Positions 40,953-60,218 are shown, numbered from the stretch's first letter. The stretch: DNA of 64,000 nucleotides from an uncultured Thiobacillus sp. (GCA_964404175.1 CAYOJA010000001.1:29506-93505), one strand, 5' to 3'. Notes: generated from the letters alone by a model not told the origin. A program made the numbers and translations.

Positions 40953-40989
40953 TTGATTCTCCTTGAGCGTGTGTATCGAAAGATTGGTT

Positions 40990-41238: not shown

Positions 41239-41760
41239 CTATTCGTTAAGGCTGATCACCGCACGTCTTGCGCCAGGGTTCGTGCTGGGCGGATGCTCGA
41301 TGCAGCATCGCGAATCGACTTTGATATTCCGTTTCGGGATTCCATTGGCGCGCATATAAACCGCGACCGCCATCCCGCGCTTGTACGCTAGGGTTTCGTT
41401 AAATCGCTTCTTGCCTATCTGATCCGTGCTGCCAAGAATCAGAAAACGTCTAGCGCCACGATGTCGTTCTAGGAATGCCTTGAGCTTGGCTTTCTCGGTC
41501 TGACTGAGCCGGGCCGAAGCCAACGCAAAACGAACTGAAGTAGAGGAATGCACGGTGACCGGCTTAGCAGCGCTATCCGGTACCCTCGCGGGCATGGGAA
41601 CGGCTACAGGCAGGTCAAGCACCTTCGCCGTTCTTACAGGGCAATCTCCTTGATGACACATGACATAAGCGCTAATGGAATCGGACTGCATCACTTGCCA
41701 GTCGGCACCCATCGACGAACCTGCCCAGACCAGGGCAAGCAATGTGAACATGCGTTTCAT
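41239..41760 (-). CDS. OmpA-family peptidoglycan-binding protein (position of GGI yag)
   Basis: VRFALASARL, GSTDQIG..NETLAYKRG..V. Confidence 0.85.
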   Translation of the reverse strand: MKRMFTLLALVWAGSSMGADWQVMQSDSISAYVMCHQGDCPVRTAKVLDLPVAVPMPARVPDSAAKPVTVHSSTSVRFALASARLSQTEKAKLKAFLERHRGARRFLILGSTDQIGKKRFNETLAYKRGMAVAVYMRANGIPKRNIKVDSRCCIEHPPSTNPGARRAVISLNE

Positions 41761-42188
41761 GAGGATTTCCTCATTGCCCGGTAGACTTTCCAGGCATAGC
41801 CATTTCGTGCACGGCGGCACGCATCGCCTTTAAGTCGCGTGCATGCCGCGTTGTACGCACCGACCGCTTCCCACGAAGCGCCATATCGAGTGAAGTTGTT
41901 AGCCAGCACCCAGGCACCCAGCTTGACGCTGGTACAGGGATCATAGAGGTGGGCCTCGGTGTATCCGAGCGACTTGATAGGGTTCCTCCGCAGCCACCGG
42001 GTATTGATCTGCATCAGCCCAATGTCCTGAGACTGCGTACTCGCTGTGTGAGTGCTGTTAACCACATGCGGTCTCATATTCGACTCAACTTGGGCCACTG
42101 CCTTCAGCAATAGTGGTGAGACCCCATACATCTCCCCCGCCTCATCAAAACAGAAGGCGTGGGCTTGGGTATAAAAAAGGGCCGTCAT
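41757..42188 (-). CDS. Lytic transglycosylase (position of GGI ltgX)
   Basis: AHAFCFDEAG, AVAQVESN, DIGLMQIN, AVGAYNA; start 42188 or 42221. Confidence 0.9.
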   Translation of the reverse strand: MTALFYTQAHAFCFDEAGEMYGVSPLLLKAVAQVESNMRPHVVNSTHTASTQSQDIGLMQINTRWLRRNPIKSLGYTEAHLYDPCTSVKLGAWVLANNFTRYGASWEAVGAYNAACTRLKGDACRRARNGYAWKVYRAMRKSS

Positions 42189-42228
42189 GAGGACAACCCA
42201 AGGGGAGGAGAGGGAAACCATGGGGCGA

Positions 42229-42296
42229 ATGCTATGGATGCGCTCATCCCGCTTCCAGCGGAAATCAAAAGAATGTTTTTTTGATTGATTGCTGAA
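42229..42296 (-). promoter_or_regulatory. tra promoter A: 22-bp box + 36 bp + TCCATAGCAT
   Basis: Minus strand TTCAGCAATCAATCAAAAAAAC (42296-42275) and TCCATAGCAT (42238-42229); both match 57608-57675. Confidence 0.7.
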
Positions 42297-42753
42297 AACA
42301 AAATCAGAAATGGATAAAATGATCGGTTGCCCAAAAAAAGAAAACCCAATAAGGGACAAGGGACTTACCCGAAAGGGCTTGTTCGCTTGAATAGACGCGA
42401 ACACAAAGGAATACGGGGGCTTAAGGGAAACGGCTTACTGGTTAAGGGCTAAAAATGGCTGGACAAAGAGCGCCCACCAGCGTGCGTCCTAGCGGAAATC
42501 ACCAAAAAAGTTTTTGAGAGTAAAGGCTCAGACTTGACCTGACAAACAGTGAAAGTACGGGTCACCCCTGCGTTACTGGGTGGCCGGTGTAGGACAGCAA
42601 GCGGTCGGTCGTGAAACCAGCGCGTACTTCTGCTGATCGGCCTTTGCTGCCGGTGGCGTTGGCTGAGTTGAATGGCCGGTGTCGCGCAGATTGCCGACGT
42701 TGACGCGATAGGCTGCGTGAACGGCCGCTTTCGTCAGTGGGAAGGGACAGCAC

Positions 42754-43647
42754 TCAACTCTCTTCCAGCCACTTACGCAACTCCAATGATGCCAAGTCGA
42801 CGAATGCCCGCAGCTTGGGCGGCATGAAGCGCTGGCGAGGGTAGACGAGGTGGATCGGGTCGGCCTTCGCATGCCACTCGGGCAGCACGCGCACTAGCCT
42901 GTCACCATCGCTTTCATGTCGGCAGAGGTAGAGCGGCAACAGGGCAACGCCTTCACTGGCCAGCGCCATCGAGCGGATCACGCCGATGTCGTTCACCATC
43001 ACCTGGCCGGACATGGGTATGGTAACGCTGTCACGCTTGTTGCTCAGCGTCCAGGCCTCCTTGCCTAGCGGCGTGAACTGCAGGCAGCTGTGCTGGGAAA
43101 GCGCCTGCGGCGTAGTTAGCTTCGGAGCTGATTTCAGATAGCCCGGGCTGGCAAAGGGTGCCCAGCGCGCGATGCCGACGTTCTTGGCGACCAGCGTTGA
43201 GTCCTTCAGGCTGCCTGTCCGGATGGCCACATCGACGCCCTCGGCGATGAGATCCACATAGCGGTTCATCAGTACCATCTCGATACTGACCTTGGAGCAA
43301 TGGTGCCGCATCTGGTTGATGATCTCGGCCAAGATGAGGTCGCCGACGTCCGCAGGCGCCGTCACTCGCAACAGTCCTTTCGGTTCGCCAGCCGATTCGG
43401 TCACTGCGGCTTCCGCATCGAGCATGTGGCCCAGCCCGGTCGACGCGTGCTGGTAGTACAACTCGCCGGCTTCGGTCAGGTGCAGGCGGCGCGTGGTCCG
43501 CTGCAAGAGAGTGACCCCCAAACGCCTTTCCAGGCGCGCAACGCGGGTGCTAACCGTCGAGGTCGGCAGGCCAAGCAGTCGGGCCGCCGCGCTGAAACTC
43601 CCGGCTTCAACTACCTTGACGAAAACTGCAGCTTCGTTGAGATCCAT
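42754..43647 (-). CDS. LysR-family regulator (CrgA/DmlR-like)
   Basis: FVKVVEAGSFSAAA..L HTH, LLQRTTRRLHLTEAG, PPKLRAFVD. Confidence 0.95.
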   Translation of the reverse strand: MDLNEAAVFVKVVEAGSFSAAARLLGLPTSTVSTRVARLERRLGVTLLQRTTRRLHLTEAGELYYQHASTGLGHMLDAEAAVTESAGEPKGLLRVTAPADVGDLILAEIINQMRHHCSKVSIEMVLMNRYVDLIAEGVDVAIRTGSLKDSTLVAKNVGIARWAPFASPGYLKSAPKLTTPQALSQHSCLQFTPLGKEAWTLSNKRDSVTIPMSGQVMVNDIGVIRSMALASEGVALLPLYLCRHESDGDRLVRVLPEWHAKADPIHLVYPRQRFMPPKLRAFVDLASLELRKWLEES

Positions 43648-43743
43648 TTTTCATTTAATTGAAAAGTATTTCCATATTTAACCATCTAGTCGAGGAAATG
43701 TCTGCCCTCTACAGTACGAACCATCAACCCAAGGAGAGCAGTC

Positions 43744-44610
43744 ATGAAAAAACTCGCATTCATCAAACGCAGCAACGGCAGCCACTGGGTCGGCGACGGA
43801 TTCCCGGTGAGGAGCATCTTTTCCTATAACGATATCGCAGAGGAATTGTCGCCCTTCCTGCTGATGGACTACGCCGGCCCGACCGATTTCCCGCCGACCA
43901 CGCACAAGCTCGGCGTTGGCCAGCACCCGCATCGTGGCTTCGAGACGGTAACCATCGTCTACGAAGGCGGCGTTTCGCACCGTGACTCGTCGGGCGGCGG
44001 CGGCGCCATCGGCCCGGGTGATGTTCAGTGGATGACGGCTGCGTCCGGGCTGATCCATGAGGAATACCACAGCCCGGCTTTCGCCGAAAAAGGCGGAACT
44101 TTCGAGATGATCCAGCTCTGGGTCAATCTGCCTGCCAAGGACAAGATGTCGTCCCCCGGCTACCAGGGCATCACCACCGACCAGATTCCGGAAGTCGAGC
44201 TGCCCGGCCAGGCCGGCATAGCACGCATCATCGCAGGCCGTTACGGCGATGTGAGCGGCCCGGCGCGCACCTTCACCCCAATGAACGTCTGGGATCTGCA
44301 GTTGAAGGCCGGCCACCGCGTATCGCTCGACCTTCCCGAGGGCTATACAACGGCGCTCTTCGTGTTGCGCGGCGCCATTCGCACGAAGGACCACTACACC
44401 GTGCGCACTGCCGAACTGGCAGTCATGCAGCGCGCCGAAAGCCGCCTCGAGTTTGACGTGGCCGAAGACACGACGCTGCTGCTGCTGAACGGCGAGCCGT
44501 TGAACGAGCCTGTCGTCGGCCATGGTCCCTTCGTGATGAATACCCGCGAGGAAATCGTGCAGGCGATCAACGATTACAACAGTGGCCGCTTCGGACAAAT
44601 CGGCCATTGA
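43744..44610 (+). CDS. Pirin-family protein
   Basis: PFLLMDY, HPHRGFETVT, WMTAASGLIHEE, QLWVNLP. Confidence 0.95.
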   Translation: MKKLAFIKRSNGSHWVGDGFPVRSIFSYNDIAEELSPFLLMDYAGPTDFPPTTHKLGVGQHPHRGFETVTIVYEGGVSHRDSSGGGGAIGPGDVQWMTAASGLIHEEYHSPAFAEKGGTFEMIQLWVNLPAKDKMSSPGYQGITTDQIPEVELPGQAGIARIIAGRYGDVSGPARTFTPMNVWDLQLKAGHRVSLDLPEGYTTALFVLRGAIRTKDHYTVRTAELAVMQRAESRLEFDVAEDTTLLLLNGEPLNEPVVGHGPFVMNTREEIVQAINDYNSGRFGQIGH

Positions 44611-44645
44611 CCCAGCAGTCCCATCAACCCAAAAGGAGAATACCA

Positions 44646-45059
44646 ATGAGCAACACCGTCTTTGATCGAAATGATTTCGGCCATCTGGCAGGCCGTATTC
44701 TGATGGCAGTGATCTTCGTGGCCGCCGGAATTGGCAAGCTGACCGCCTTTCAAGGCACTGTCGGCTATATCGCAAGCCAAGGGGTACCGCTGCCAAGCCT
44801 GGCCGCAGTCGCGACCATTTGTCTGGAAATCGGTGGCGGCATGATGCTGATCCTGGGTTTCAAGGCACGCTGGGCCGCCGCTGCTTTAGGCCTGTTCACC
44901 ATCGTTGCCGGTCTGATATTCCACAACTTCTGGGCCGCCTCACCTGACCAGTTCCAGAATCAGTTGATCCACTTCCAAAAGAATCTGGCGATGGCAGGCG
45001 GGTTGCTTTACCTGGTTCTGCACGGCAGCGGGCGTTACAGCCTGGGAAAGCGTGGATGA
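44646..45059 (+). CDS. DoxX-family membrane protein
   Basis: GRILMAVIF..GIGK, EIGGG, FQKNLAMAGGLL. Confidence 0.92.
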   Translation: MSNTVFDRNDFGHLAGRILMAVIFVAAGIGKLTAFQGTVGYIASQGVPLPSLAAVATICLEIGGGMMLILGFKARWAAAALGLFTIVAGLIFHNFWAASPDQFQNQLIHFQKNLAMAGGLLYLVLHGSGRYSLGKRG

Positions 45060-45229
45060 ACTGATACCTAGATTTTCCCGACCTACCTGTTGCTGATCGA
45101 GAGTTACGGCAAGGAGAGGTCGTGAAAAACCGCGAAGTGCTGGATTCCCAGCGCTAATCGGTAACGGATTTCACTGCCGATTTAGCGGAGGAATCCATGT
45201 TTGAAACCTAACTTGAGAAGGAGAGAATC

Positions 45230-45871
45230 ATGGCAAGTGAGCCTATTCGTGATCAAAAGAACGATCAACTGCTGACACCGCAAAACGCCGCTTTCATCGT
45301 CATCGACTACCAGCCGGTCCAGGTGAATTCGATCGCCTCGATGGATCGTCAGCTGCTGGTCAACAATATTGTCGGCACGGCAAAGGCTGCTGTGGCCTAC
45401 GGCCTGCCGATCGTGCATTCCACGGTTAACGTCAAGACTGGCCTCAACAAGCCGCCCATCGCGCAGTTGCGCAAAGTGCTCGATAAATTTCCCACTGTTG
45501 ACCGTACCACGATCAACTCGTGGGAGGACGTGGAGTTTCGCAAGGCTGTTGAGGCCACCGGCCGAAAGAAACTCATCATGACAGCACTCTGGACCGAGGC
45601 CTGCCTGACGTTCCCGGCGCTGGATGCGCTCGCGGCAGGTTACGAGGTTTATGTCGTTGCTGATGCCGTCGGCGGTACGTCGGTGACAGCCCACGAGATG
45701 GCCCTGCGCCGGATCGAACAGGCAGGCGGCAAGATGATCAGTGTGCCGCAGTTGTTCTGTGAACTTCAGCGCGACTGGCAACGCAAAGAAACCGTACCGG
45801 CCTTCATGAACCTGTTCATCGAAACAGGTGGAACCGCCGGCCTCCAGTTTGGATATGACAAATACGAGTAA
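45230..45871 (+). CDS. Isochorismatase-family hydrolase (YcaC-like)
   Basis: IDYQP, RTTINSWED, ALWTEACLTFPALDA. Confidence 0.92.
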   Translation: MASEPIRDQKNDQLLTPQNAAFIVIDYQPVQVNSIASMDRQLLVNNIVGTAKAAVAYGLPIVHSTVNVKTGLNKPPIAQLRKVLDKFPTVDRTTINSWEDVEFRKAVEATGRKKLIMTALWTEACLTFPALDALAAGYEVYVVADAVGGTSVTAHEMALRRIEQAGGKMISVPQLFCELQRDWQRKETVPAFMNLFIETGGTAGLQFGYDKYE

Positions 45872-45932
45872 TCGTCCGACGCTCCCACCCGCAAGGGTCG
45901 GGGCGCCTCGCTTTCACCGAAAGAGAATTCCC

Positions 45933-46541
45933 ATGTGCAAACTACTGCAACTCAAGACCAGTCTTTTCTCCAGCGGCGGACAGTCTAGCCAACTCTCTGA
46001 CGCCTTCGTCGCCGCCTGGCGTGCCAGCCACCCCGGAGCCAAGATCGTGACTCGCGACTTCGCCATCGATCCTGTGCCGCATCTCGACGGGGCGTGCTTC
46101 CAGGCATTTCTCGCCAAACCGGAGGAGCGCAGCGCAGAGCAGCAGGCCAGGGTCGCTTACTCTGACGCGCTGATCGAAGAAGTGAAGGCTGCCGATGTCC
46201 TCGTCATTGGTTTGCCGATGTACAACCTTGGCATGCCATCGATGCTGAAAGCTTATTTCGACCACATTGCCCGCGCTGGCATCACCTTCCGCTATACCGA
46301 GAATGGTCCGGAAGGATTGCTCTCTGGCAAGAAGGTTTATGTCTTTGCGGCGCGCGGCGGTCGCTATGTTGGAACGCCTTTCGATGTCCAGACCGGGTAT
46401 GTACGCAACTTTCTCGGCTTCATCGGCATTACCGATGTCGAGTTCGTCTATGCCGAGGGGCTGAACATGGGCGAAGAGAGCAAGGCTGCCGGGTTGAATA
46501 CCGCACACGCAGAGCTGGTGCGCATCGCTGCCTGGGCGTAA
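45933..46541 (+). CDS. azoR: FMN-dependent NADH-azoreductase
   Basis: PMYNLGMPSMLKAYFDHIARAG.TF.Y, ARGG, FIGITDV. Confidence 0.92.
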   Translation: MCKLLQLKTSLFSSGGQSSQLSDAFVAAWRASHPGAKIVTRDFAIDPVPHLDGACFQAFLAKPEERSAEQQARVAYSDALIEEVKAADVLVIGLPMYNLGMPSMLKAYFDHIARAGITFRYTENGPEGLLSGKKVYVFAARGGRYVGTPFDVQTGYVRNFLGFIGITDVEFVYAEGLNMGEESKAAGLNTAHAELVRIAAWA

Positions 46542-46595
46542 ATTGCACCGTTAGCAAACCAGGTGTTTAGGCACACCAGAGCCGACGAGAATCCT

Positions 46596-47180
46596 ATGGG
46601 AAAGAACCGACTGGAAGCTTTCAGCGACGGCGTGCTGGCCATCATCATCACGATCATGGTGCTGGAGATGAAGGTGCCGCACGGCGAGACCCTGACGGTC
46701 TTGGCGCTGGTAGCACCCGTGTTTCTCAGCTATATCCTGAGCTTTGTCTACATTGGCATCTACTGGAACAACCATCATCACCTGTTGCACACAGTGAAGC
46801 GGGTTTCGGGCCCCATTCTGTGGGCCAATCTGCATTTGCTGTTTTGGCTTTCGCTGTTTCCTTTCGCGACGGGATGGATGGGGGAGAACCATTTTGCGCC
46901 GCTACCCACCGCACTTTATGGAGTCGTCTTGCTCATGGCATCGCTAGGCTATCTGATATTGCAGTGGCTAATCGTTTCTAATGAGGGTGAACGATCCTTG
47001 CTCAAGCGAGCCATTGGGCACGACTGGAAAGGGAAGGTTTCCGTGCTTTTCTACATTACAGCCATCGGCGCCGCGTTTTGGCTACCCAGGATAGCGCAAT
47101 TGCTCTACATCGTTGTTGCGTTAATGTGGTTGTTTCCTGACCGTCGCATCGAGCGGATCCTTCATCAAGAAGAAGACTGA
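46596..47180 (+). CDS. TMEM175/DUF1211-family K+ channel
   Basis: RLEAFSDGVLAIIITIMVLE, YWNNHH. Confidence 0.9.
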   Translation: MGKNRLEAFSDGVLAIIITIMVLEMKVPHGETLTVLALVAPVFLSYILSFVYIGIYWNNHHHLLHTVKRVSGPILWANLHLLFWLSLFPFATGWMGENHFAPLPTALYGVVLLMASLGYLILQWLIVSNEGERSLLKRAIGHDWKGKVSVLFYITAIGAAFWLPRIAQLLYIVVALMWLFPDRRIERILHQEED

Positions 47181-47488
47181 CGAATAGAAGTCCCATGTTC
47201 GCGATCGCCAAAATCGCATCACGCAGGCCAAGTGGGAAGCAGACGTTTGATGTGACGGACTAGCTTTCGACCGCTCTGGAGACGTGAGCGGACATAATTG
47301 ACTGGCTAGGCCGAAGTCGGCTTCGGCCGACGACCCGCCTGTCTGAGAGAGCCTCCCACCGTCGCTTCTTCGGGGCCAAAGCGGTCACACGAAGTGGGCC
47401 CACGGAACGCAGTGTGGGGCAACTCCCTAGTTACAGGGTTGGCTGGCCAGGGGTCTTTTGCTGCAAGGTTCCATGTTATAAGAATTTA

Positions 47489-47512
47489 TATGTTATATTT
47501 TTCTATAACATA
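47489..47512. promoter_or_regulatory. Palindromic operator upstream of the WYL gene
   Basis: TATGTTATA-TTTTTC-TATAACATA, 5 bp before ATG 47518; extra half-site ATGTTATA at 47473-47480. Confidence 0.75.
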
Positions 47513-47517
47513 CGGAA

Positions 47518-48384
47518 ATGTACATGGACCAACGGAACGACAGCCCGCAACAACGCCTTACCCTTCTGGAGCTTTTGCTGGTTTGGGAAGGGCGTATTTA
47601 CCGTTCGCGGGTATGCGAGCTGTTCGGTATTGGTTTGCCACGGGCCAGCCAATGGATCAAGGAAATCCGCGACCTGAACCCCACCTGGATGCAATGGGAC
47701 AGCAAGTCCAGGAGCTACTTCGCTACGCCTGATTTCTATAAGCGGTACACCAAGGCTACTCAGGCAAACATTTCCGAATCGCTTTCCCGCTACCTGTCCA
47801 TGGTCGGGCTTCCCTATGCGTCGGCCATGGAAGAAGGCGGTTCAGTGGCCTGGTCGGCGACACCAAGCATCACCGCCCCGGCACCCAAAACATTTGCAAG
47901 CCTCGGGAATGCGATCAGACAGGCAAAGGCCGTCGAAATCGAATACATGTCGATGAGCGAACCGGCTCCTCATCGCCGCACGATCTATCCGCACAGCCTG
48001 GTTCTCGCCGGCCGCAGGTGGCATGTGCGCGCCTACAGCGAAGCGCATCAGGAATTCCGGGATTACGCACTGGGGCGAATCCTCGAGGTGAAGCCTTTAG
48101 CGCGTCCCGCGGATCGCACCCGATTCGATGACTCCGACTGGTACACCAAGGTCAAGGTACGCCTGGTCGCCCACCCTGACCTTTCTCCAGCACAGGCCAG
48201 AGTGATCCAGGCCGAATACTTCAACGGGACAGCGAGCCGCGTCGAAACCTGCCGCGCGGCGCTGGTCCCCTATTTCATTCAGGACATACACGCTGCGACG
48301 GACACGAAGATCCAGCATGCGCCCGAGTACCTAATCGCCGTTGAAAACGCACGGGAGGTATCCAAGTGGCTTTTCAACCGCTAG
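47518..48384 (+). CDS. wHTH-WYL transcriptional regulator, CapW/BrxR-like
   Basis: RLTLLELLLVWEGRIYRS..LFGI wHTH; IEYMSMS, IYPHSLV.AGRRWHVRAY, FRDYALGRI WYL domain. Confidence 0.9.
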   Translation: MYMDQRNDSPQQRLTLLELLLVWEGRIYRSRVCELFGIGLPRASQWIKEIRDLNPTWMQWDSKSRSYFATPDFYKRYTKATQANISESLSRYLSMVGLPYASAMEEGGSVAWSATPSITAPAPKTFASLGNAIRQAKAVEIEYMSMSEPAPHRRTIYPHSLVLAGRRWHVRAYSEAHQEFRDYALGRILEVKPLARPADRTRFDDSDWYTKVKVRLVAHPDLSPAQARVIQAEYFNGTASRVETCRAALVPYFIQDIHAATDTKIQHAPEYLIAVENAREVSKWLFNR

Positions 48385-48502
48385 GCGCTGGCGGCGCTGC
48401 CGCCTCCCTTCTGTTCAAGAATCTGACTTCAGCAAGAGAGGCAATGCAAGAAGTGCTAAGAAAACGCGGCGATTTATTAACCAACGTACCAGCGTGCCAG
48501 TG

Positions 48503-49867
48503 ATGGAGTGGATTCCCCTAATAGCATCTACTCTGAGGCTGGTCGATCTGCACGACAGCGATCGCGCCTACGGTAGCCCACCCAACTTCACGCGTGAATC
48601 AAGGACAGGCAACTCTGACGGGATTTATCTCGATATTGCCTTTAACATTATCCATCGCCTGAAGTTGCTTGATCAAAGTACAAGCCAGGACTACCTCCCA
48701 TTCTCGGTCATCCTGAACGCCGTCAAGGAAGAGCGCCCTGAGACGGCTGATGCTGACGTTCAGTACGTCCTCAATGTACTGCGGCGGCCCTCTGAACTTT
48801 TCTATCTAACAAGCGTTGTCGGCCAACGGACAAAGGTCTGCCACTCGGAGAGACGCGAGACAGCACTTATCGAGAAAACCGATTACGCTGACGAATACAG
48901 GCTGTCGGCATCCGGCCGGCTGCTCCTGTCCTTGGCGAACGTGGCCCGAGATGCCACGTACTTGCGAGGCGATGCCTACAACCTACTGCATGCCATCGAA
49001 TTCAACGATTTCCCGAAGATCCTGACTTTCGCGGATGGCATCGTTGCTCAGCTACGAAACGAGATTCTGGAAGTGCGGTCCGCCCTGGAACGTGTCGGAC
49101 GAACAGAAACGGTAGACAAGTACCTGGACCGGCTTGATCAATACAAGCAGGTCGTCGAAGAAACCATCGGCATCGCCCAGCAAGCTGAATCCAGGCTGGA
49201 GCAAAGCGACGTTCTGGATGCATTCGAGCGCTGGCAGGAGGCGGCCGACATGGACCTCACCTTCGATTACCTGCGCAACCAGATCAACCATGTCCGCCAG
49301 GTCCTGCTGATTTTCAACCGTCTCCTCTCAGAGCTAGTGAGCCTGGCGTTGCAGGGGGAGCGTTCGGCGGTGCCGCCGCCCTCGTTCATCGAAACCGCGG
49401 CGCAATTCATTCGTTCCCCGCTCACGCCAGAGAAAGAGAGTTTCCTGCTCAACCAGTGGGGGGCAATGATTCTGGAAACACCATTTCACTCGGCTCTCGA
49501 TGGGCTCGGCGCAATCAAGCTGCGTACGATGGCTGAAGCCGTCCAGCCCATGGCCTTCCTGGACGAAACAGTCGAGACCGTTTCCGAGTTGGGCAAGGCG
49601 AGGTTCCTGGCGATGCATGGTCCAGAGATTGCCGCTGCGCTCAAGTCCGGACCACTACGCCTGTCCGACGCAATCGAGCGCGGCTGGTTCATGGTGGAAC
49701 AAGAGATGATGCTGGGAGATCTCGTTGGGATATTCGTTGCGCCAAACAGCATCCCTATTGCCGGCAACATCATGATCGGCGTCAGCACAACGCTCGACAG
49801 CAGAGTAGCTGGAGGCGGTGAATTCCTGTTCACCGACATCGAAATCACCGCAGTGGAGGAATCATGA
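48503..49867 (+). CDS. Putative kleisin-like subunit (JetA/MksF-like)
   Basis: YRLSASGRLLL wHTH-like end followed by a long helical region; position and size in the operon; inference only. Confidence 0.55.
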   Translation: MEWIPLIASTLRLVDLHDSDRAYGSPPNFTRESRTGNSDGIYLDIAFNIIHRLKLLDQSTSQDYLPFSVILNAVKEERPETADADVQYVLNVLRRPSELFYLTSVVGQRTKVCHSERRETALIEKTDYADEYRLSASGRLLLSLANVARDATYLRGDAYNLLHAIEFNDFPKILTFADGIVAQLRNEILEVRSALERVGRTETVDKYLDRLDQYKQVVEETIGIAQQAESRLEQSDVLDAFERWQEAADMDLTFDYLRNQINHVRQVLLIFNRLLSELVSLALQGERSAVPPPSFIETAAQFIRSPLTPEKESFLLNQWGAMILETPFHSALDGLGAIKLRTMAEAVQPMAFLDETVETVSELGKARFLAMHGPEIAAALKSGPLRLSDAIERGWFMVEQEMMLGDLVGIFVAPNSIPIAGNIMIGVSTTLDSRVAGGGEFLFTDIEITAVEES

Positions 49868-50646
49868 ACAACTCGGATATGGGCCGCGTCCACGCCTGGC
49901 TGTTACGCCATCGCATCGCCGAAACGAAGTCGAGCCGGCGAGCCATCAGCAAGGAGGAGCGCGAGATCGCCGGCCTGCTGCTCAACGCAGATCCCGCCCT
50001 GCGCATGCAGTTCGAGGAGATGCTGGAGGGTCAGGGATTGCAGTTAGTCTCTCTCACGTCATTCGATGCGAAGGGCATAGCGTCCGGCAGCACCGTGTTT
50101 ATGCTTGCCAGGAATCCCGACGCCGCCCCCCCTTTCTGGGGAACCGACCGTCTCGTGAGCCGCATGCTTCTCGTGAAAGGCATCGACACCGACGCGGAAG
50201 CCAAGACCTGGTTCACCCAGCTATGGTTCGTTTTGCTTGATTTGCTATACACGCGCAGAAACCGTGGCCCCAATGCCATGCAGGACTGGGTGGATACCGC
50301 TTTCTCCAAGGAAATCTTCATTGATTCCGTCAGGGACTATCTGAATGATCGCGTCAGAAAGATCGACCCATCCACGTTAGAAACCGACCGGGTGCACAAG
50401 ACCATGACCGGCCTAAAGGAAGGCGCGATCGCCCAGGCCTGCTACGCCTTTATCGAGTTGATGGTTGACGCCGGGCTGCTAGAAGAAATCGACAAGGACA
50501 TTTTCAGGCAAAGCCTGCTCTTTGCGTACGAGATGAAGTGCAATTTTGATCGACAACTCAAGACGCTGCTGCCCGAACAGGACAAGTTCCAGGCCGCAAG
50601 CGAGATACTGGTCGAGCACACCGACGAAGAAACGGAGGCTAAGTAA
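49864..50646 (+). CDS. Putative KITE/winged-helix subunit (JetB/MksE-like)
   Basis: 260 aa, C-terminal wHTH-like FIELMVDAGLLEE...FRQS; ATGA and TAATG coupling to neighbours; inference only. Confidence 0.55.
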   Translation: MNNSDMGRVHAWLLRHRIAETKSSRRAISKEEREIAGLLLNADPALRMQFEEMLEGQGLQLVSLTSFDAKGIASGSTVFMLARNPDAAPPFWGTDRLVSRMLLVKGIDTDAEAKTWFTQLWFVLLDLLYTRRNRGPNAMQDWVDTAFSKEIFIDSVRDYLNDRVRKIDPSTLETDRVHKTMTGLKEGAIAQACYAFIELMVDAGLLEEIDKDIFRQSLLFAYEMKCNFDRQLKTLLPEQDKFQAASEILVEHTDEETEAK

Positions 50647-53600
50647 TGGCTGCGATATCACGGATCCAGGTCGCCAATTTCCTCACCGAGGGATACATGA
50701 CGGGAAAGGAATGGGCCCCGCTCTATCGTGGCGAGACCTTCCGTCTGTTCGGACAGCCCACCGCCATGCAGATCGACAATGGCGGCGGCAAGACGAGTCT
50801 GACCGAGGCTTGCCTGTATGCACTGACCCGACATCGCCAACTGAAATCCAGGGTAGAGGATCGGGTTGCGCCACCCGACAAAGGCTGGACCCACATACGC
50901 TTTGAGTTCGTCGAAAAATCGCATGAGGAGGATATCCTGCAGACGGAACTGATCACACTGGATCCCGAGGACATTCCTGGCATCACTTATGTCGTAGGCA
51001 TGTGCTGGAGCCGCACCAAGGATCCCAGCTTCTATTCCTACCAAGGGACTCTGGAGGATGCCCCTTGCTATATCCGGGAACAGAACAAGCTTGCCCTCAT
51101 CGCCAACGACGTCTTCCGAAAGTCTGTGGAGGGCATGCCGGGCGCCAGATGGAATCGTTGGCGCAATCAGGCAGAGTGGCTGGAGGAGATCAGGCAGTTC
51201 ACCAACATCGAGGTGCTGCTTCAGAACGTGGAGTTCCAGCTGGAGGGTGCTGGTGACTACTCGGCCATGATCACCAAAGTGAAGCCGGAAGGCGCTGAAA
51301 CCTACGATACCGCTTTCTTCCGGCAATTTGTCGCCCCTGAGCTGCTCAAGCATGCCATGGGCGCGGAAGGTGATCCAGACGAACTCGGATTCGAGGACAC
51401 CATCCTCAAGACGCTGAAGCCGGCGGCCGACGCCTTGTTAGATATCAACAGGCGCCAGCTTGAACTAGAGCAGACGAAGGAGGCCCTCCGGAAATTCGAA
51501 CCGGTGCTGCAGAAGGCAAGTGAGGTCGTAACCGCCAACGCAGAGTACCAGCGCGAGATGAACGCGCTCGCACGAAACGCGGCCATCGTCCACTCCCTGT
51601 CCATGGCGTCGCCGTTGCCGGGCATTCCCGTTATTCCGCCGGGAACCCAGTGGGCAAGTGACAAGCGCGTAATGACCGCCCTCGGGCACATGGTCATCGA
51701 CAAGAAGCATGGAACGGTGATCACAGACGAGGGTCTGGCCGCGTTGATCGGTGTGCCTACCAATGAAATCAACAAGCGCTCTGATACCAGCAACATCGTT
51801 ATGCTCGACTCCGAAACGATTGGACTCAGCGAGCATCTCAAATCGACCAAGCCTAGTGAGCCATCCGGAGGGGAGGGGCAAGAGGAAGCACAACCCTTTG
51901 AAAATAAACAGCATCTCAAAAGATTTGGACGCGGAGGTCGACGCTATTACACCAAGTGCTATCCGCTGAAGCCGGCCCTTTCTATCAGTTCCGCGTGTTC
52001 AAACCTTGCCGGCGCGAAAACTTCAGGACTTACCGACGTCCTTACCCGCGCCTTCGGTATCGCCGCAGACGAGATCGACACCAATCCCTACCGGCATCGG
52101 CTGCGCAAACTTACGTTGAGCCTGGACGAAGCCAGAGGTCGCCAACGCACGGCTCAAGGTGACTGCGACCGTTACCAGGCTTCATACGAAAAATTGCTCA
52201 CCGAGAGCCGGGATGCCAAGGAAAACCAGGCCGCCTATGAAGGTTTCATGGCGAGAAAACATGAATTCCCCGAGGAATACTGGAGCACCCCACTCGCTGC
52301 GCAAGAGTGGGCAGAAGCCGCCGCAAAGAAAGCCGAGGAGGAACGCACTGAGCATGTCACCCTCAGCGCCAAACGCCAAAGCGGCTACGGCTTGTGGCAG
52401 AAACTGGCCGAGAAGCATGGGCAAACTTCGCTGCAGGAGGCGCTGGCAACCCTGAGCGAACTGCATGCTAAAGCGGTGGAGGCCAAATCCACGGCCGAGG
52501 GCGACCTCGGTCAGACCAATGCACAACTTCGTAACAAGCGCACGGAACTGGAAAGGGATGAAAGAAATCTTGGCGTTGCCACAAAGCGCCTGGAGAAGCT
52601 GAGTGGACTTGCGGCCTACCGACCCAAATTCATAGAGATCTTCGGTGACGTTGACCCGCTGGGCCTGAGCCCTCAGGCCGAGATGCAACGCGTACAAGGC
52701 GACAAATCGAAAAATGACGGTCAGCTGCAGGATGCCGATACCAAGAAGCAGGAGCTGCTGGGCCTGCAACCCATGGCGAAGCTGTTTCTTGAGATGTTTG
52801 GCGACGCCGGTCCCGATGGCCTAGACCCAGTGGGGGATCTGCAAAGCCACTTGGAAGCCATCGCTACTGAAGATGGTGTCGTGGCGGATCATCAGCCTTT
52901 GGTCGAGGCTTTGACCTACTTCAGAGAGCAGCTCCCTGGCATTTCGCCAGATGACTGGCTCGCCCACGCGTCGGATCAGCGCCGAATGCTCATCGAGGAG
53001 CGTGGTAGCAATCAGAACAATATCCGCGACCTCACGGGTGAATTGGAGGACCTGGACTCATTCGGGGCTGCCGATGACCGCGTCTACGCCAAAGCCCTGA
53101 AAGTCCTGGCCGACAATGGCATCAGATTTGACCGGCTGCACGACCTTGCTTCGAGAACCGTGTCAGGCGACCGCCTGGAGACCTGTCTGTCCCTCTTCTC
53201 TGCTGCTTTGTCAGCCCCGGCTATCGCATCCGTGGAGGAGGCCGCGAACGCTGCACGCTTGTTGGAGCAGTCCGAGCTGACGGTGCCGATTTTCCTCAAG
53301 CCAGCCCTGGAATCGTTCATTCTGGACGGAGAAATTCATCAGTCCGGTGAAACAGCCCACGCATTGTGGGTTGGCCGTCGCACGCGGCAGGTCGACATCA
53401 TTCTGGACCCCGCCCTCATCGCGGAGGAGAAGAGGCGGATCGAGGAACAGATCGGAAATCTTACCCGGCGCAACGAACAGATCGGCGAACTTGTCGCGGA
53501 TATTTCCGAGGACAGCGCCGCCGTCAAGACGGCGCTGAGTGCGAAAGAAGCGATCCGCCGTGATTCCGAGCGCATTCATGACGAGGCCGCCAGAAAACGA

Positions 53601-55649
53601 GACGCCCTCCAGGCGAAGAAGACCTGGTTTGAAGAGAGGGCGTCGACCAGAGCTCTTGAGGCGATCTCTTCCATGAAGCGTTACATCAAGGCCGGTGGTG
53701 AGATCCGGTATTTGGAACTCGTGGAAACCATCATCCCCGGCCTGGAAAACGAGAAAAAAAGCATCAGCGAACGGCTTGCCGACCTGCGCGCGCAAACGGA
53801 GGAAGACGCACTTCGAGCCCTGCACGCGGCTAAGGATTTTCAACGCGAAGGCGGCGAGGATGCGCTGGCCGCAGCTAAGACAGCGGCCACGGATCTCTCG
53901 TTAAAGGTGAAGTCGCTCAAGTACGCAGTGGATGAACTGCAGGGCAAGGTGGACAACGAACTGAGGGAGGCTTTCAACAAAGCGGCCGAAATTCTTTCCG
54001 AGATCAGCAAGACTTTCCCAATCGACAAGCGCGACCTTGAAGTCTCGATCCTGTTCGAAGAGGAAGGTTTCGTCGAGTTCATGAAGACCACCGATTCGAA
54101 AAGACAGCGGCTCGAAGCTGAACTGGTGACGGCCCAGAAGCGACTGCAAGGCATAGCCTTCGACCGCGCAGCACGGTATATCGACGCTACTCGATCGGGT
54201 GAACGCAGCATCGCCGACCGTATCGCTGACGCCCAGGAAAAAAGAGACGAGGCGGATGAGGCCGCGAAGAACGCGGGCCGCGACATCACCCAAATCGAAG
54301 GCGAGATGGCCACCATGACGCCTTTCATGGAGACGATGCACGAGATGGTTTCCTCGATTCGGGTTCAGTACGCCAAAGTCTCGCTGTTTTCCGAGGACAT
54401 CCTCCGTCTCATGCAGGCTTCACCGTTCTCCGATCCCGAGATCCTGGTTCATGCAGAAACAATTCGTATCGCCTGTACGGGTGAGATTCCGAGCACCGCC
54501 CAGGATATCAAGATCGCCATGCTCAACCTGAGACAGTGCGTCGAGGAACTTGAGATCAACACCGACGAGCTCCGGAGGTTTGGCGAAGATAAGCGGAGGC
54601 GGTTGAGCGAATACATCCAGCGTCGTGATGAATTCTGTGACCGTGCAAGGTCCGGTGAGATCCGCGGCTTGAACCAGTTGGAGATCTCGGCCATCGCAGA
54701 AGCGAAGACTATTGAGCAGCTGCAGCGCATTCAGGAAACCCAGGACGCAATCCAAGCCCAGATCACCGAAAGCGAAGCCAGTCTGGCCAAGATCCGCGAG
54801 GCCATGGAAGCCAACAAGGAGGCTTCCATCGACAATCTGGCCAAATTCGCTCGAGACGCCAAGTTGAGCCTCGACATCCTGGAACGGGTCATGAAAAAGA
54901 CCCCCAATGCCAGGTTCTACATCGAGGCTCCCGTCGCGGACGAAAGCGAGATTGGGCGAATCATCGCCGAACTTCTTGAACAGATCGAGGACAAGGAGCG
55001 CGTCGTGCGCGAGCGGGGCGTCATTCTCCTCAACGATGAGATCGAACGCAAGACGGCAGATTACAAGCGGCTGATCCACGACACCATCTACAAACGGATC
55101 TTCTCCGCTCGGGACAAGGACGAAAACTCCATCGTTCCACGAGTCTATTTCACCCACGCATCGATTCGTGGCAAGGACAAGGTGCCCTTCACTGACCGTG
55201 GCCTTTCAACGGGGCAACGAACAGCGCTGGCGATGATGTGGTTGATCAAGCAGGCGGAATTTGCCATCGCCCGAGCAGCATCGCTCTACGGCACCCGGAA
55301 GGAACGGAAGGCGGCGCTGAAGGGCGCGCAGCGGATCATGTTCTTCGACGGTCTGTTCTCCAACCTGTCCAACGAGGACTACATCAATGACGCATTCCAG
55401 GGATTGCGCGGCGTCGGCGACAACTTTCAGCTTATCGGCCTGATCCACAATCCCTATTACGTGAACAACAAGGACATCTTCCCCGTGCATCTGGTCGGCA
55501 GGAAGAAAGTCGCCAACAAGGGTGATCCTGGGCGGGAGCGCGTGTTTGTCTCTGTTGAGCCCTGGCAGGACAGCAACGGGGTGATTCTCTACACCAGCGC
55601 CTACAAGCACAAAGCCCATATGGCCGGCGAGGAGACCGTGAATGCCTGA
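50646..55649 (+). CDS. SMC/MukB-like ATPase (JetC/MksB-like), 1667 aa
   Basis: ISRIQVANF, Walker A DNGGGKTS, long heptad-rich arms around a central hinge-like region, signature LSTGQ, Walker B-like IMFFDGLFSN, FQLIGLIH. Confidence 0.85.
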   Translation: MAAISRIQVANFLTEGYMTGKEWAPLYRGETFRLFGQPTAMQIDNGGGKTSLTEACLYALTRHRQLKSRVEDRVAPPDKGWTHIRFEFVEKSHEEDILQTELITLDPEDIPGITYVVGMCWSRTKDPSFYSYQGTLEDAPCYIREQNKLALIANDVFRKSVEGMPGARWNRWRNQAEWLEEIRQFTNIEVLLQNVEFQLEGAGDYSAMITKVKPEGAETYDTAFFRQFVAPELLKHAMGAEGDPDELGFEDTILKTLKPAADALLDINRRQLELEQTKEALRKFEPVLQKASEVVTANAEYQREMNALARNAAIVHSLSMASPLPGIPVIPPGTQWASDKRVMTALGHMVIDKKHGTVITDEGLAALIGVPTNEINKRSDTSNIVMLDSETIGLSEHLKSTKPSEPSGGEGQEEAQPFENKQHLKRFGRGGRRYYTKCYPLKPALSISSACSNLAGAKTSGLTDVLTRAFGIAADEIDTNPYRHRLRKLTLSLDEARGRQRTAQGDCDRYQASYEKLLTESRDAKENQAAYEGFMARKHEFPEEYWSTPLAAQEWAEAAAKKAEEERTEHVTLSAKRQSGYGLWQKLAEKHGQTSLQEALATLSELHAKAVEAKSTAEGDLGQTNAQLRNKRTELERDERNLGVATKRLEKLSGLAAYRPKFIEIFGDVDPLGLSPQAEMQRVQGDKSKNDGQLQDADTKKQELLGLQPMAKLFLEMFGDAGPDGLDPVGDLQSHLEAIATEDGVVADHQPLVEALTYFREQLPGISPDDWLAHASDQRRMLIEERGSNQNNIRDLTGELEDLDSFGAADDRVYAKALKVLADNGIRFDRLHDLASRTVSGDRLETCLSLFSAALSAPAIASVEEAANAARLLEQSELTVPIFLKPALESFILDGEIHQSGETAHALWVGRRTRQVDIILDPALIAEEKRRIEEQIGNLTRRNEQIGELVADISEDSAAVKTALSAKEAIRRDSERIHDEAARKRDALQAKKTWFEERASTRALEAISSMKRYIKAGGEIRYLELVETIIPGLENEKKSISERLADLRAQTEEDALRALHAAKDFQREGGEDALAAAKTAATDLSLKVKSLKYAVDELQGKVDNELREAFNKAAEILSEISKTFPIDKRDLEVSILFEEEGFVEFMKTTDSKRQRLEAELVTAQKRLQGIAFDRAARYIDATRSGERSIADRIADAQEKRDEADEAAKNAGRDITQIEGEMATMTPFMETMHEMVSSIRVQYAKVSLFSEDILRLMQASPFSDPEILVHAETIRIACTGEIPSTAQDIKIAMLNLRQCVEELEINTDELRRFGEDKRRRLSEYIQRRDEFCDRARSGEIRGLNQLEISAIAEAKTIEQLQRIQETQDAIQAQITESEASLAKIREAMEANKEASIDNLAKFARDAKLSLDILERVMKKTPNARFYIEAPVADESEIGRIIAELLEQIEDKERVVRERGVILLNDEIERKTADYKRLIHDTIYKRIFSARDKDENSIVPRVYFTHASIRGKDKVPFTDRGLSTGQRTALAMMWLIKQAEFAIARAASLYGTRKERKAALKGAQRIMFFDGLFSNLSNEDYINDAFQGLRGVGDNFQLIGLIHNPYYVNNKDIFPVHLVGRKKVANKGDPGRERVFVSVEPWQDSNGVILYTSAYKHKAHMAGEETVNA

Positions 55650-56826
55650 ATTCGAGGAGCGAATTCAGCAATGGTTTCTTAAACGAACCAAGGGCAGCGT
55701 CACGGGCAAAGTTCTCACGAAAGGAGTCGTCGCGAGGTTGCGCTCCGAGGTGATCAATGACCCCGTCGCGATCAGAAAAGCACTGCTGCTTCTGCGAGAC
55801 GAGGGTCATCTGGTGTTCAGCGCAGACGAGCGTGGCACGCCCGTTAGTAGCTATATTTCGGTAATAAAGCCGACAGCGGATGTCGAGGAACATCTCCAAC
55901 GCTGGTCTCTTGTCCTTGAGGAAAAGGGCATTAGTCAGGCTGATGCCGGTGCGCTATTATCCGTGGCAGATGCCATCAAGGATCTTCCGAAGGACGACAT
56001 GAGGCTTCTGCTGGATGGGCTAGTAAAGCTTCGCCATGATCAACTCCATTTGCTCGGCCAGCCAGCCTATATTGTGAGCGCGAAGTATTTGCTTGGCTCC
56101 TCGAAGATGCTCACCCGTATCCCGAGACGTTCTCTCAAGGCGTACGGCATCGAGCCTCGGCAATTTCCCTCCCACCCGCTCTATGTTGTCGTCGCGGGTT
56201 GCGCCTCCCCCGAAACGGTGGTTCTAGTGGAAAATCCTGCCGCGTTCGAATTGGCGATAAGCACGCAAGCGGTGAATCGATGTGCCTTCATCGCGACGTT
56301 CGGGTTTGGTCTGAGCAAGTCAGAAGAAGACTGCGGGAACCAGCTCACAAAGATGGTCGAGGCACGGTTTTCCGGTGCGATCACACTGACACGTGAGGGG
56401 TCCATGTGCCCGACGGCGAAAGAGCTTCTGAGTCACCCCAAAATCACCTTCTGGGGTGACCTTGATGTCGCGGGGCTCGAGATCTATCTGCGACTCAGGA
56501 AAGCCATCCCGCACCTTCAACTCAGTGCACTCTATAAACCAATGGTTGCTTCAGTCGACAAGCCAGCAGCATCGCATCCATACGTTGCATTGGCAGGTAA
56601 GGAACGACAGCCAACGATGCCAAGGTCAGGTAAGAAAGACGATCCCGTGCTTGCCAGGCTTCTTGATATCTGCGTCTCCCGAGGCGTTGATCAGGAGCAG
56701 GTTTCGCCCTCGGACGTCGAGTCTCTGTCACCGTTTGGACTTGATGCGAGGCACTTTGAAGAACCCGTGTACAACGTGTCTATCCCGACATTGGTAAAGA
56801 CACTCGAAGCGGGCGATTGTGCATGA
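55642..56826 (+). CDS. Toprim nuclease (JetD/MksG, DUF2220/DUF2399-like)
   Basis: VSAKYLLGSSK, VLVEN, FWGDLDVAGLEIY, VDQEQV. Confidence 0.85.
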   Translation: MPEFEERIQQWFLKRTKGSVTGKVLTKGVVARLRSEVINDPVAIRKALLLLRDEGHLVFSADERGTPVSSYISVIKPTADVEEHLQRWSLVLEEKGISQADAGALLSVADAIKDLPKDDMRLLLDGLVKLRHDQLHLLGQPAYIVSAKYLLGSSKMLTRIPRRSLKAYGIEPRQFPSHPLYVVVAGCASPETVVLVENPAAFELAISTQAVNRCAFIATFGFGLSKSEEDCGNQLTKMVEARFSGAITLTREGSMCPTAKELLSHPKITFWGDLDVAGLEIYLRLRKAIPHLQLSALYKPMVASVDKPAASHPYVALAGKERQPTMPRSGKKDDPVLARLLDICVSRGVDQEQVSPSDVESLSPFGLDARHFEEPVYNVSIPTLVKTLEAGDCA

Positions 56827-56840
56827 GTCGTTGAAATCCA

Positions 56841-57407
56841 ATGGCATCAACGTCGGAAACGATTGAAACACTGCGGGGCGCACTTGCCACGTACACCGAT
56901 GAGCGCAAGCTTCTTGAACTCATCGACGAGAGTCTTTCCCTACTTCGTTCCCGCTATCGGCAATTCAAGGCCGAATTTACCGACGAGTCCATTCAATTCC
57001 TGAAGTCGCTTACCGTCGTTCGAGATGCCCTACGTGAATTTATCGAAGCCGTCGAGGACAAAGCCTGGGTTCATTCCCGCGATGATGCTCAGGAACTCGC
57101 CTGTACATTCGGTGAACTCGGTGAGCGGCTTACTCCGCACTTCGTCGCAAAACGCGCAGCAAAGGAAACGCGTGAGCTCCTCGCGACGGCCCAGTCGCTG
57201 CCGTTCGCGGCGGTCAATGTAGGCCAGAATGATTTCCGCCGACGTATTTCCCAGCTTGAAGCAGCTGGCAAGAAATGCCAGAAGTGCGGATCCAAATTGG
57301 CGCTACGAGAAAGCCAGCACGGTTACTTTTGGGGGTGTAGCACTTTTCCCCAGTGTTTTGGGAGGCAGCGGCTTTCCAGGGAAGAATCCCAACTGCTCGA
57401 TCAATGA
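56841..57407 (+). CDS. Helical protein with C-terminal topoisomerase-IA-type C4 zinc ribbon
   Basis: CQKCGSKLALRESQHGYFWGCSTFPQC. Confidence 0.8.
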   Translation: MASTSETIETLRGALATYTDERKLLELIDESLSLLRSRYRQFKAEFTDESIQFLKSLTVVRDALREFIEAVEDKAWVHSRDDAQELACTFGELGERLTPHFVAKRAAKETRELLATAQSLPFAAVNVGQNDFRRRISQLEAAGKKCQKCGSKLALRESQHGYFWGCSTFPQCFGRQRLSREESQLLDQ

Positions 57408-57607
57408 GATTGCGAGTCACGCGACACTGGCAGACGGCTTACACATCTAAAAATTCTTCGTTGCTTGCCCCTTTAGCGATAGCGCATTGGGTTCAAACCA
57501 CGACACCCGACGCGCGAACCGCAATACCACGCCGGGTAGTTAGGGCCATGTCTTCTACGCTTCAAGCGTCTCCTCCATAAAAACGCGTACCACAAAACAA
57601 AATACAC

Positions 57608-57675
57608 TTCAGCAATCAATCAAAAAAACTTTGTTTGAATTATCTGCTGCAAAGCCAAGGCCGAGTCCATAGCAT
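57608..57675 (+). promoter_or_regulatory. tra promoter B: 22-bp box + 36 bp + TCCATAGCAT
   Basis: TTCAGCAATCAATCAAAAAAAC (57608-57629) and TCCATAGCAT (57666-57675), as in promoter A. Confidence 0.7.
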
Positions 57676-57704: not shown

Positions 57705-58145
57705 GTGCCCGTGGCCTCCATAGAAGAACCCAACAATCAGGATCATCCTGTCACGCTCTTCGCACACATTGCGACACGATTCGAACAAATCGAACTGTCC
57801 CACTGGACGGCCGTTGTGTTTGCATGGCTTGCCCGTTATGACGGGATCGATCGATGCTATTTTGAAGACGAAGAGGAATCCCCAGCCCATGAGGTGCTTC
57901 ATTGCATCGCCGAACTGGATCATGGGACTACAGACGACGAAGTAGCCCACGCGCTATCTCATCTTGAATTCCTTACTTGGCGTGTCCGCCATCCCGAAAC
58001 CGCGGAGTGCTGGGATCCGCTCTCACTATCCCTCAGTGATTTCATCGGCGGGGATTTATCGCCCAATTGCTGGAAATGGGAAGGGACCTTCCCGGATTCA
58101 CCCGTAATTGCCTCATGGCTCATCGAACAGCTCCCACACCGCTGA
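57705..58145 (+). CDS. Acidic hypothetical protein coupled to traI (position of GGI yaf)
   Basis: GTG start downstream of promoter B; TGA overlaps the traI ATG (TGATG). Confidence 0.65.
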   Translation: MPVASIEEPNNQDHPVTLFAHIATRFEQIELSHWTAVVFAWLARYDGIDRCYFEDEEESPAHEVLHCIAELDHGTTDDEVAHALSHLEFLTWRVRHPETAECWDPLSLSLSDFIGGDLSPNCWKWEGTFPDSPVIASWLIEQLPHR

Positions 58146-60217: not shown

Positions 60218-60218
60218 C

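Follow-up and report, generated by a model that had tools for sequence, protein, structure and literature searches.

The gonococcal genetic island (GGI) of Neisseria gonorrhoeae carries its origin of transfer (oriT) between the divergent yaf-traI-traD-yaa and ltgX operons (PMC6736028, PMC4207684). Conjugative units resembling the GGI are common in betaproteobacteria. A second related group is formed by the SXT/R391 integrative and conjugative elements and the IncA/C plasmids, which likewise combine a MOBH relaxase with an F-type type IV secretion system (T4SS). In their SetCD/AcaCD regulons, a conserved box is present at transfer promoters that do not have a good -35 element, including activated promoters that diverge back to back (PMC4344509). 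In this study, a stretch of 64,000 nucleotides from an uncultured Thiobacillus sp. (GCA_964404175.1, CAYOJA010000001.1:29506-93505; hereafter the window, with positions counted from its first letter) was analyzed, which contains a GGI-like conjugative element with an MPF_F T4SS and a MOBH relaxase from a Thiobacillus-type betaproteobacterium. Two distant sites of this element share a 22-bp box, a spacer of fixed length and a -10 hexamer, and they probably represent the promoter-operator modules of its two transfer operons, with a protein of the element coupling the expression of both. The system appears to work like other pairs of operators and promoters of transfer genes located beside oriT, and structurally it is a member of the GGI-like family.

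The overall organization is that of the GGI, with a lytic transglycosylase gene, the pilin gene, traL-E-K-B, dsbC and traV-C through traG on one side, and a small open reading frame (ORF), a MOBH traI, traD and yaa transcribed divergently on the other. The initial annotation had reported that TTCAGCAATCAATCAAAAAAAC, followed after exactly 36 nt by TCCATAGCAT, occurs at the heads of these two operons, and both the repeat and its positions were confirmed, with two copies in the window. The modules extend over 42296-42229 on the minus strand and 57608-57675 on the plus strand; within them, the box occupies 42296-42275 (-) and 57608-57629 (+), an exact match in each case, and the TCCATAGCAT block lies behind the spacer at 42238-42229 (-) and 57666-57675 (+). 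Allowing up to three mismatches to the box recovered the same two copies only, and none was found in 100 dinucleotide-preserving shuffles. The two 36-nt spacers are strongly divergent, so that identity is limited to the box and the -10 block and does not point to a recent duplication of the whole segment. The minus-strand module precedes slt (41757-42221, -; Pfam SLT), the lytic transglycosylase gene that leads the T4SS operon, and the plus-strand module precedes an ORF of 144 aa at the yaf position (57711-58145, +; conserved GTG start, net charge -20), which is the first gene of the traI operon and is followed by the MOBH relaxase gene traI, the coupling protein gene traD, and a DUF4400/Yaa-like gene for a membrane protein (58142-62994, +; Pfam TraI_2, TraI_2_C, TraG-D_C, and DUF4400). 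The 8-mer TTCAGCAA at 63270 occurs at about chance frequency, and this position was missed by a profile of the module.

Conservation of the module was investigated in 78 related loci fetched via TraI, in which a box was accepted with up to four mismatches. The box was found before the traI operon in 20 of them, as well as before slt wherever the slt side was covered. The slt-side copy is kept in L014, L015, L017, L020, L036 and about 30 metagenome copies, and the traI-side copy in the 20 related loci and about 30 metagenome copies. The module is retained at TraI identities of 76% (L017), 65% (L020 and L036) and 52% (L025, in a distant group ranging from 52 to 56%), and a profile search detected weaker versions in L023, L029 and L070. 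When both sides of four diverged elements were aligned, mean column conservation reached 0.91 in the box and 0.81 in TAGCAT, compared with 0.60 in the spacer and 0.52-0.56 in the flanks, and the box contains an invariant core, TTCAGCAATCAA. The distance from the box to the -10 hexamer (36 + 4 nt) is constant in nearly all copies, including those of Methylophilaceae-type elements, whose -10 versions are TACTAT, TACATT, TAAGCT and TATCAT. Such a pattern suggests strong purifying selection on a box held at fixed spacing to the -10 hexamer, which fits the shared protein-binding site that had been proposed from the window.

A scan of 241 million metagenome records with the first 18 nt of the box as query yielded 116 stretches, in which each full module precedes slt or a yaf-like gene, the other matches sharing the 18-mer only. 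No third context of the module was observed in the window, the related loci or these 116 stretches, and the statement that there are two copies only rests on these three sources. Some variants of the modules were also noticed. In two metagenome contigs (L110 and L188), the traI-side module is cut exactly past the 36-nt spacer and continues into unrelated sequence, so that the box and the right arm described below are kept and the -10 hexamer is lost, which looks like an insertion or rearrangement at the promoter. In more distant GGI-like elements (L077, 9650-9700; L059, 9620-9670), another AT-rich dyad, GGAAATTCG-N12-CGGAATTTCC, lies directly before the yaf-like gene, which suggests lineage-specific operators at the same position. 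In addition, part of the slt-side module recurs in degenerate form (AGCGGAAATCACCAAAAAAGTTTTT ... TCCAGCCAT; 42455-42530, -) 234 nt inward of the real one; this partial copy is kept in L015, L014 and L017, does not contain the TTCAGCAATCAA core, and may be a remnant or a weak second site.

The box had been regarded as an isolated upstream element, a view that did not hold, as it proved to be the conserved left arm of an imperfect palindrome of about 44 bp, whose right arm is a degenerate inverted copy of the box and overlaps the -35 position. The slt-side right arm, ATTCTTTTGATTTCCGCTGGAA (42274-42253, -), is complementary to the box at 13 of 22 positions, and the traI-side right arm, TTTGTTTGAATTATCTGCTGCAA (57630-57652, +), at 14 of 22, a value reached by 14 of 3000 shuffles. 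The symmetry centre lies at box nt 22-22.5 in almost all copies, and most of them form 13-19 complementary pairs out of 22, the dyad of L025 being nearly perfect (19/22). The palindrome exceeded its shuffles, few or none of which reached the observed values, in 7 of the 12 copies tested, and in nearly every locus the nhmmer profile of the module also matched its own reverse strand. With the transcription start site (TSS) taken 7 nt after TAGCAT, the left arm would span about -74 to -53 (centre -63.5) and the right arm about -52 to -30 (centre -41.5). In L025 (3861-3935), the palindrome is flanked on either side by a -10-like hexamer at canonical distance (TAAATT towards slt and TATAAT towards oriT), which suggests that a single operator could fire in both directions.

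The A/T-rich character of the palindrome also brings in another explanation, namely that no dedicated regulator exists and that the palindrome serves as an UP-element-like A-tract/T-tract (about -59 to -42, contacted by the alpha-CTD of RNA polymerase) and/or a site for a host nucleoid protein such as IHF or Fis that boosts weak constitutive promoters. By eye, the palindrome centre, AAAAAAAC TTTGTTTGAAT, fits about 10 of the 14 specified positions of the UP-element consensus, the ATCAA cores look like one half of the IHF consensus, the hosts all belong to the betaproteobacteria, and the dedicated binder is so far only a candidate. However, conservation of the module peaks in the outer TTCAGCAATCAA (-74 to -63), which lies beyond the UP region, neither strand matches the complete IHF consensus WATCAANNNNTTR as judged by eye, and a dyad with outer CAGC/GCTG on both arms points to a symmetric, specific binder. 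Control by host factors without a regulator of the element is thus considered unlikely.

Downstream of the palindrome, both modules end in the hexamer TAGCAT, located at 42234-42229 (-) on the slt side, where the TAnnAT core has the same spacing across four aligned lineages (L023, L025 and L029 were read by eye), and at 57670-57675 (+) on the traI side, where TAnnAT is likewise conserved at fixed spacing. In natural variants, the bases before the hexamer change (TCCC-, TCAA-, TAAA- and GAAA-TAGCAT), and TAGTAT and TACGAT are further versions of the hexamer itself. Thus, of the TCCATAGCAT block that had been taken as the -10 element, the TAGCAT core stands, whereas the preceding TCCA is not conserved; this is the pattern expected of a sigma-70 -10 element (T1, A2 and T6) rather than of a longer protein site. 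The claim that neither promoter has an obvious -35 element was correct in part. The outer motif of the right arm, GCTG(C/G)AA, is conserved and coincides with the -35 position, providing CTGCAA with a 17-nt spacer on the traI side (57647-57652) and CTGGAA with an 18-nt spacer on the slt side (42258-42253), but each matches TTGACA at only three of six positions. Both putative promoters score 7/12 against consensus and neither site was called by a sigma-70 scan, which indicates that they would be intrinsically weak.

The predicted TSSs (about 42221 and 57682) agree with the earlier predictions near 42222 and 57682. On the slt side, the ATG (42221) follows the -10 hexamer by 7 nt, and this distance is 6-7 nt in the window, L017, L020, L036 and L029. 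The N-terminus of Slt is a conserved in-frame signal peptide and no Shine-Dalgarno sequence precedes it; the slt mRNA is therefore predicted to be leaderless, with transcription starting on the A of the ATG. On the traI side, the GTG at 57711 is conserved in four lineages, which would give a leader of about 29 nt. A single metatranscriptome contig begins at about 57678/9 and lacks upstream coverage, a weak indication of a TSS on this side. Three other features were considered and set aside. A sigma-54 promoter was rejected by eye, since the spacing of GG and GC deviates by one nucleotide and is not kept in the traI-side module. A sigma-32 promoter (CTTGAAA-N13-CCCCAT) was also rejected by eye, as the CC before TAGCAT varies and TAGCAT does not. 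A hairpin just past the traI-side -10 hexamer (CACGGGCA...TGCCCGTG) was dropped for want of covariation support.

The region between the two operons appears to contain oriT. In the GGI, oriT has an inverted repeat 3' of nic and a few specific bases 5' of it (PMC6736028). In the window, a nick-region motif, GGACTTACCCGAAAGGGC, is followed by the hairpin TGTTCGC-N10-GCGAACA (42380-42403), and this core (42361-42403, +), which lies beside the slt-side module, matches the GGI oriT in position and anatomy (PMC6736028). The placement of oriT between the operons, with its hairpin on the 3' side of the nick, is thus a further likeness to the GGI (PMC6736028, PMC4207684), here seen as a sequence signature. 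In two related loci, L020 and L036, the boxes stand back to back, facing away from each other, at distances of 244 and 264 bp, and the interval holds GGCTTACCCAAAGGGC, directly followed by the hairpin GTGTTCGC-N10-GCGAACAC and a run of GGCTTAA/GGG repeats. GGCTTACCCAAAGGGC together with the hairpin was found between slt and traI in 10 lineages, including Paraburkholderia, Pandoraea and Achromobacter, and the hairpin arms differ in sequence among lineages yet stay complementary through compensating changes. From these comparisons, the location of oriT between the two operons is well supported.

The interval from 42364 to 42620, comprising the oriT hairpin, the GGCTTAA repeats and the next approximately 200 nt, was also conspicuous in two metatranscriptome assemblies (X30 and X36), in which its summed contig depth was 5-20 times that of slt and comparable to that of the pilin gene region (40900-41080). 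This depth could stem from an abundant small RNA of the oriT region, or the sum may simply pool many related elements.

Between oriT and the traI-side module, the window contains variable cargo (approximately 42480-57574, boundaries approximate; no strand assigned), including LysR, pirin, DoxX, isochorismatase, flavodoxin-like and TMEM175 genes as well as a WYL gene, JetABCD-like genes and a Zn-ribbon gene. Homology to the compact relatives stops at about 42476 and resumes at about 57580, and variant metagenome contigs diverge from the window at 57541, 57575 and at 42420-42757. Other Thiobacillus variants carry 4.0-5.6 kb of different cargo in the same slot. Since the compact relatives have their modules back to back around oriT, the cargo sits between promoters that were once adjacent, as had been supposed in the initial annotation; the comparison indicates that the ancestral state consisted of two modules back to back around oriT and that about 15 kb of cargo now separates oriT from the traI-side module. 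On the right, the cargo ends sharply and at recurrent positions (57541 or 57575 across many samples), whereas its left boundary varies (42420-42757), and the cargo in the window includes a Wadjet-like defence cluster. Provided that the hairpin is 3' of nic, as it is in the GGI, the slot is probably located in the leading region.

The two boxes are inverted and bracket the cargo, which could recall terminal inverted repeats or recombination sites of a 15-kb mobile unit. This origin is extremely improbable. Compact relatives that have no cargo keep both boxes, on which ground the transposon-end reading was rejected; moreover, the cargo boundaries (about 42477-42757 and 57541-57575) do not lie at the boxes, and no transposase is present at the ends. 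A role confined to relaxosome architecture was also considered, in which the boxes would be bound or bent by an oriT accessory factor for nicking and transfer and would have no part in transcription. It could draw on the compact relatives, whose boxes flank oriT symmetrically at about 100-150 bp, and on the F plasmid, in which TraY and TraM sites flank nic (PMC12117103). However, cargo of 4-15 kb is tolerated between oriT and the traI-side box, so that the sites need not cooperate at oriT and each module appears to work with its own promoter rather than within one fixed oriT structure. Each box also keeps an exact distance to a -10 hexamer and a first gene, including the leaderless ATG. A purely architectural function is thus very unlikely, but the two roles are not exclusive, and the slt-side site may have a secondary role in the relaxosome.

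The initial annotation had interpreted the boxes as sites of an unrecognized master activator of transfer, had pointed to SetCD/AcaCD-type activators, and had recommended a search for FlhDC-like genes. In the corresponding explanation, such an activator would be encoded outside the window and act at both promoters in a class-II-like manner. The poor -35 elements and the extension of the conserved site into the -35 region agree with this, and SetCD boxes are found at or beside the -35 element of SXT transfer promoters, back-to-back divergent ones included (PMC4344509). FlhC homologues at the yaf position of some GGI-like systems were noted by Pachulec et al. (PMC4207684). In a sister lineage, represented by plasmid AP018719.1 of Sulfuricystis multivorans and by Accumulibacter contigs, traI is directly preceded by an FlhD-like and a Zn-ribbon FlhC-like gene (L199, 2797-3904; L200, 2733-3852), and all transfer genes of this lineage are collinear (traI-traD-orf-DtrJ-slt-ompA-small ORF-pilin-traL...), with a two-component system upstream. 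Because of this pair, the FlhDC analogy was a reasonable lead. However, a tblastn search with the FlhD/FlhC-like pair of the sister lineage gave no match in the 64 kb of the window or, up to 10 kb from traI, in the 78 related loci, and none of the window ORFs scanned matched Pfam FlhC or FlhD. Furthermore, the relatives that do carry FlhDC-like genes have no box-like site in the 14 kb examined, and the whole conserved backbone of the element apparently lies inside the window. The module also occurs at two promoters only, compared with eight or more in SetCD/AcaCD regulons, where transfer, excision and recombination genes are controlled; its 44-bp dyad at -74 to -30 contrasts with a 19-bp box at -35, and here oriT lies between the promoters. 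Two defining features of a SetCD/AcaCD regulon, FlhC/FlhD subunits (window and related loci) and a large set of promoters (window, related loci and the 116 metagenome stretches), were thus looked for and not found, so that the system is not regarded as such a regulon, and an FlhDC-type activator encoded elsewhere appears quite improbable.

Two small proteins of the element were considered as binders of the palindromes. On the traI side, the yaf-position protein belongs to a family detected before traI in 39 loci with a hidden Markov model. Its AlphaFold2 model (pLDDT 87.5, pTM 0.81) had no fold neighbour in the PDB, no Pfam or NCBIfam profile matched its sequence, and no similarity to FlhD/FlhC-like proteins was observed. 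As a binder it is disfavoured by its net charge of -20, by this lack of neighbours and profile matches, and by its absence from L017, which has both modules; roles as a relaxosome adaptor or as a DNA mimic are conceivable.

On the slt side, a conserved hypothetical protein of 79 aa (40990-41229, -) is encoded between an ompA-like gene and the pilin gene traA, where the F plasmid carries traY. It forms a called gene family of 59 clusters, all unnamed, and was present in all nine box-bearing lineages in which the region from slt to the pilin gene was covered, including L017 and the distant L070. Conservation within the protein is highest in a basic segment (GYKAVLVREETKxKLQ), and AlphaFold2 (pLDDT 78.6) predicted an extended N-terminus, helices at 19-30 and 37-53, and a third helix. 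Foldseek returned weak matches, all with E > 1, among which were the ribbon-helix-helix (RHH) proteins SegB and Reg576, as well as MazE. From these features, an RHH-like fold is suggested, and the 79-aa protein is the lead candidate for the operator binder, being the best lead rather than a result.

F TraY stimulates the traY promoter of the tra operon, which would be the closest functional analogue of the control envisaged here. RHH accessory proteins such as F TraY also bind beside oriT (PMC12117103). The likeness extends to gene position, as TraY is a small protein encoded directly upstream of traA-traL-traE-traK-traB, and to the placement of its sites (sbyA/sbyC) beside oriT (PMC12117103). 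In contrast, the 79-aa protein has no similarity to Pfam TraY, with an RHH fold only suggested; the relaxase is of the MOBH type here and MOBF in F, and here a long dyad is found at two promoters.

In the proposed mechanism, a dimeric or tetrameric sequence-specific DNA-binding protein, most likely encoded by the element, would bind both palindromes, taking the high-affinity distal arm and, cooperatively, the weaker proximal arm over the -35 position at both promoters. As a shared binder, it would couple the expression of the mating-pore operon to that of the relaxase/coupling-protein operon, and the lead candidate is the 79-aa RHH-like protein encoded directly upstream of the pilin gene. Judging from promoter anatomy, activation appears somewhat more likely than repression, since the promoters are poor by themselves (7/12) and the proximal arm would be centred at -41.5, a class-II position. 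What speaks for autorepression is that promoters flanking oriT in IncP and IncW plasmids commonly behave in this way. In IncP (RP4) and IncW (R388, TrwA), oriT lies beside promoters whose operators bind small relaxosome accessory proteins acting as repressors, and MobC of RA3 is reportedly a comparable case. The element shares with RP4 and R388 the location of oriT between or next to promoters and the coupling of DNA processing to transfer-gene expression, but the relaxase and T4SS families are different, the sequences are unrelated, and the RP4 and R388 proteins repress.

Several observations weigh against this mechanism or its lead candidate. The palindrome is weak in four copies (L020_p, L020_m, L036_m and L025_b), which did not exceed their shuffles. 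Public metatranscriptome RNA contigs run through both promoters and cannot place a start; these runs consist of assembled contigs, some of which are DNA-like, including contigs of 12 kb. For the 79-aa protein, assignment to the RHH proteins falls short of significance, and no match was obtained in Pfam, NCBIfam, PHROGs or PDB sequences. The protein is also encoded in the Sulfuricystis/Accumulibacter lineage, in which no box was found in the 14 kb examined, and its co-occurrence with the box is confounded by shared ancestry. A more ambitious version of the proposal, in which the 79-aa protein would act through the two 44-bp dyads as both master transcriptional switch and relaxosome factor at oriT, filling the role of FlhDC in the sister lineage, with a leaderless slt promoter, is possible although doubtful.

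The slt-led T4SS operon runs uninterrupted on the minus strand from 42221 down to 22077, with Pfam and NCBIfam matches in the F-type order ltgX/slt, traA, traL, E, K, B, dsbC, V, C, trbI, W, U, trbC, N, F, H, G; its distal part comprises trbI-like, S26 peptidase, traW, traU, trbC, traN, traF, traH and traG genes. A gene for a XerC/D-like tyrosine recombinase (20389-21360) adjoins traG, whereas in Neisseria the GGI is inserted at dif by the host XerCD. No att/dif repeats were found between the regions at 18.5-22.1 kb and 62.9-64 kb. Four GCTAAC repeats (63203-63262) lie 3' of the DUF4400 gene in an intergenic stretch of low GC content (48%), close to where the element probably ends on the right, and they may represent iterons or sites for a recombinase. 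Neither a tRNA gene nor an att-like direct repeat was found, and a search for contigs encoding the ORF at 63375-63932 found none on record. Further differences from the GGI are that cargo splits the intergenic region here, that the yaf-position protein is of a distinct, widely conserved acidic family, and that a box or palindrome of this sequence is not described for the GGI in PMC6736028 or PMC4207684, a comparison made by description and not by GGI sequence.

The closest TraI relatives are encoded in Thiobacillus genomes and metagenome-assembled genomes (95-98% identity), and more distant ones in Hydrogenophilales, Methylophilaceae and other betaproteobacteria. The plasmid databases contained no TraI nearer than 44% identity, plasmid relatives reaching at most 43-44%, and in a blastn search neither promoter region matched any of 72,556 plasmids. 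An Rfam scan over 40-60 kb of the window detected nothing relevant.

As far as the literature consulted goes, no description exists of the motif and its dyad form, of a leaderless slt promoter or of the candidate binder, and the circuit is of an expected type that introduces no new principle. The conjugative unit recurs in metagenomes of sludge, soil, sediment and bioanodes with metal resistance and defence genes as cargo, and cargo is repeatedly found in the slot that separates oriT from the relaxase promoter. What has been gained is a delimited operator, two predicted promoters, a well-supported oriT and candidate binders, and a cultured carrier strain, such as Thiobacillus denitrificans DSM 12475 with its 96% relative (L011), makes the circuit testable. 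If the dual role of the 79-aa protein is true, the protein and its dyads would constitute a new regulator-operator pair in a conjugative family widely distributed among betaproteobacteria of wastewater and soil.

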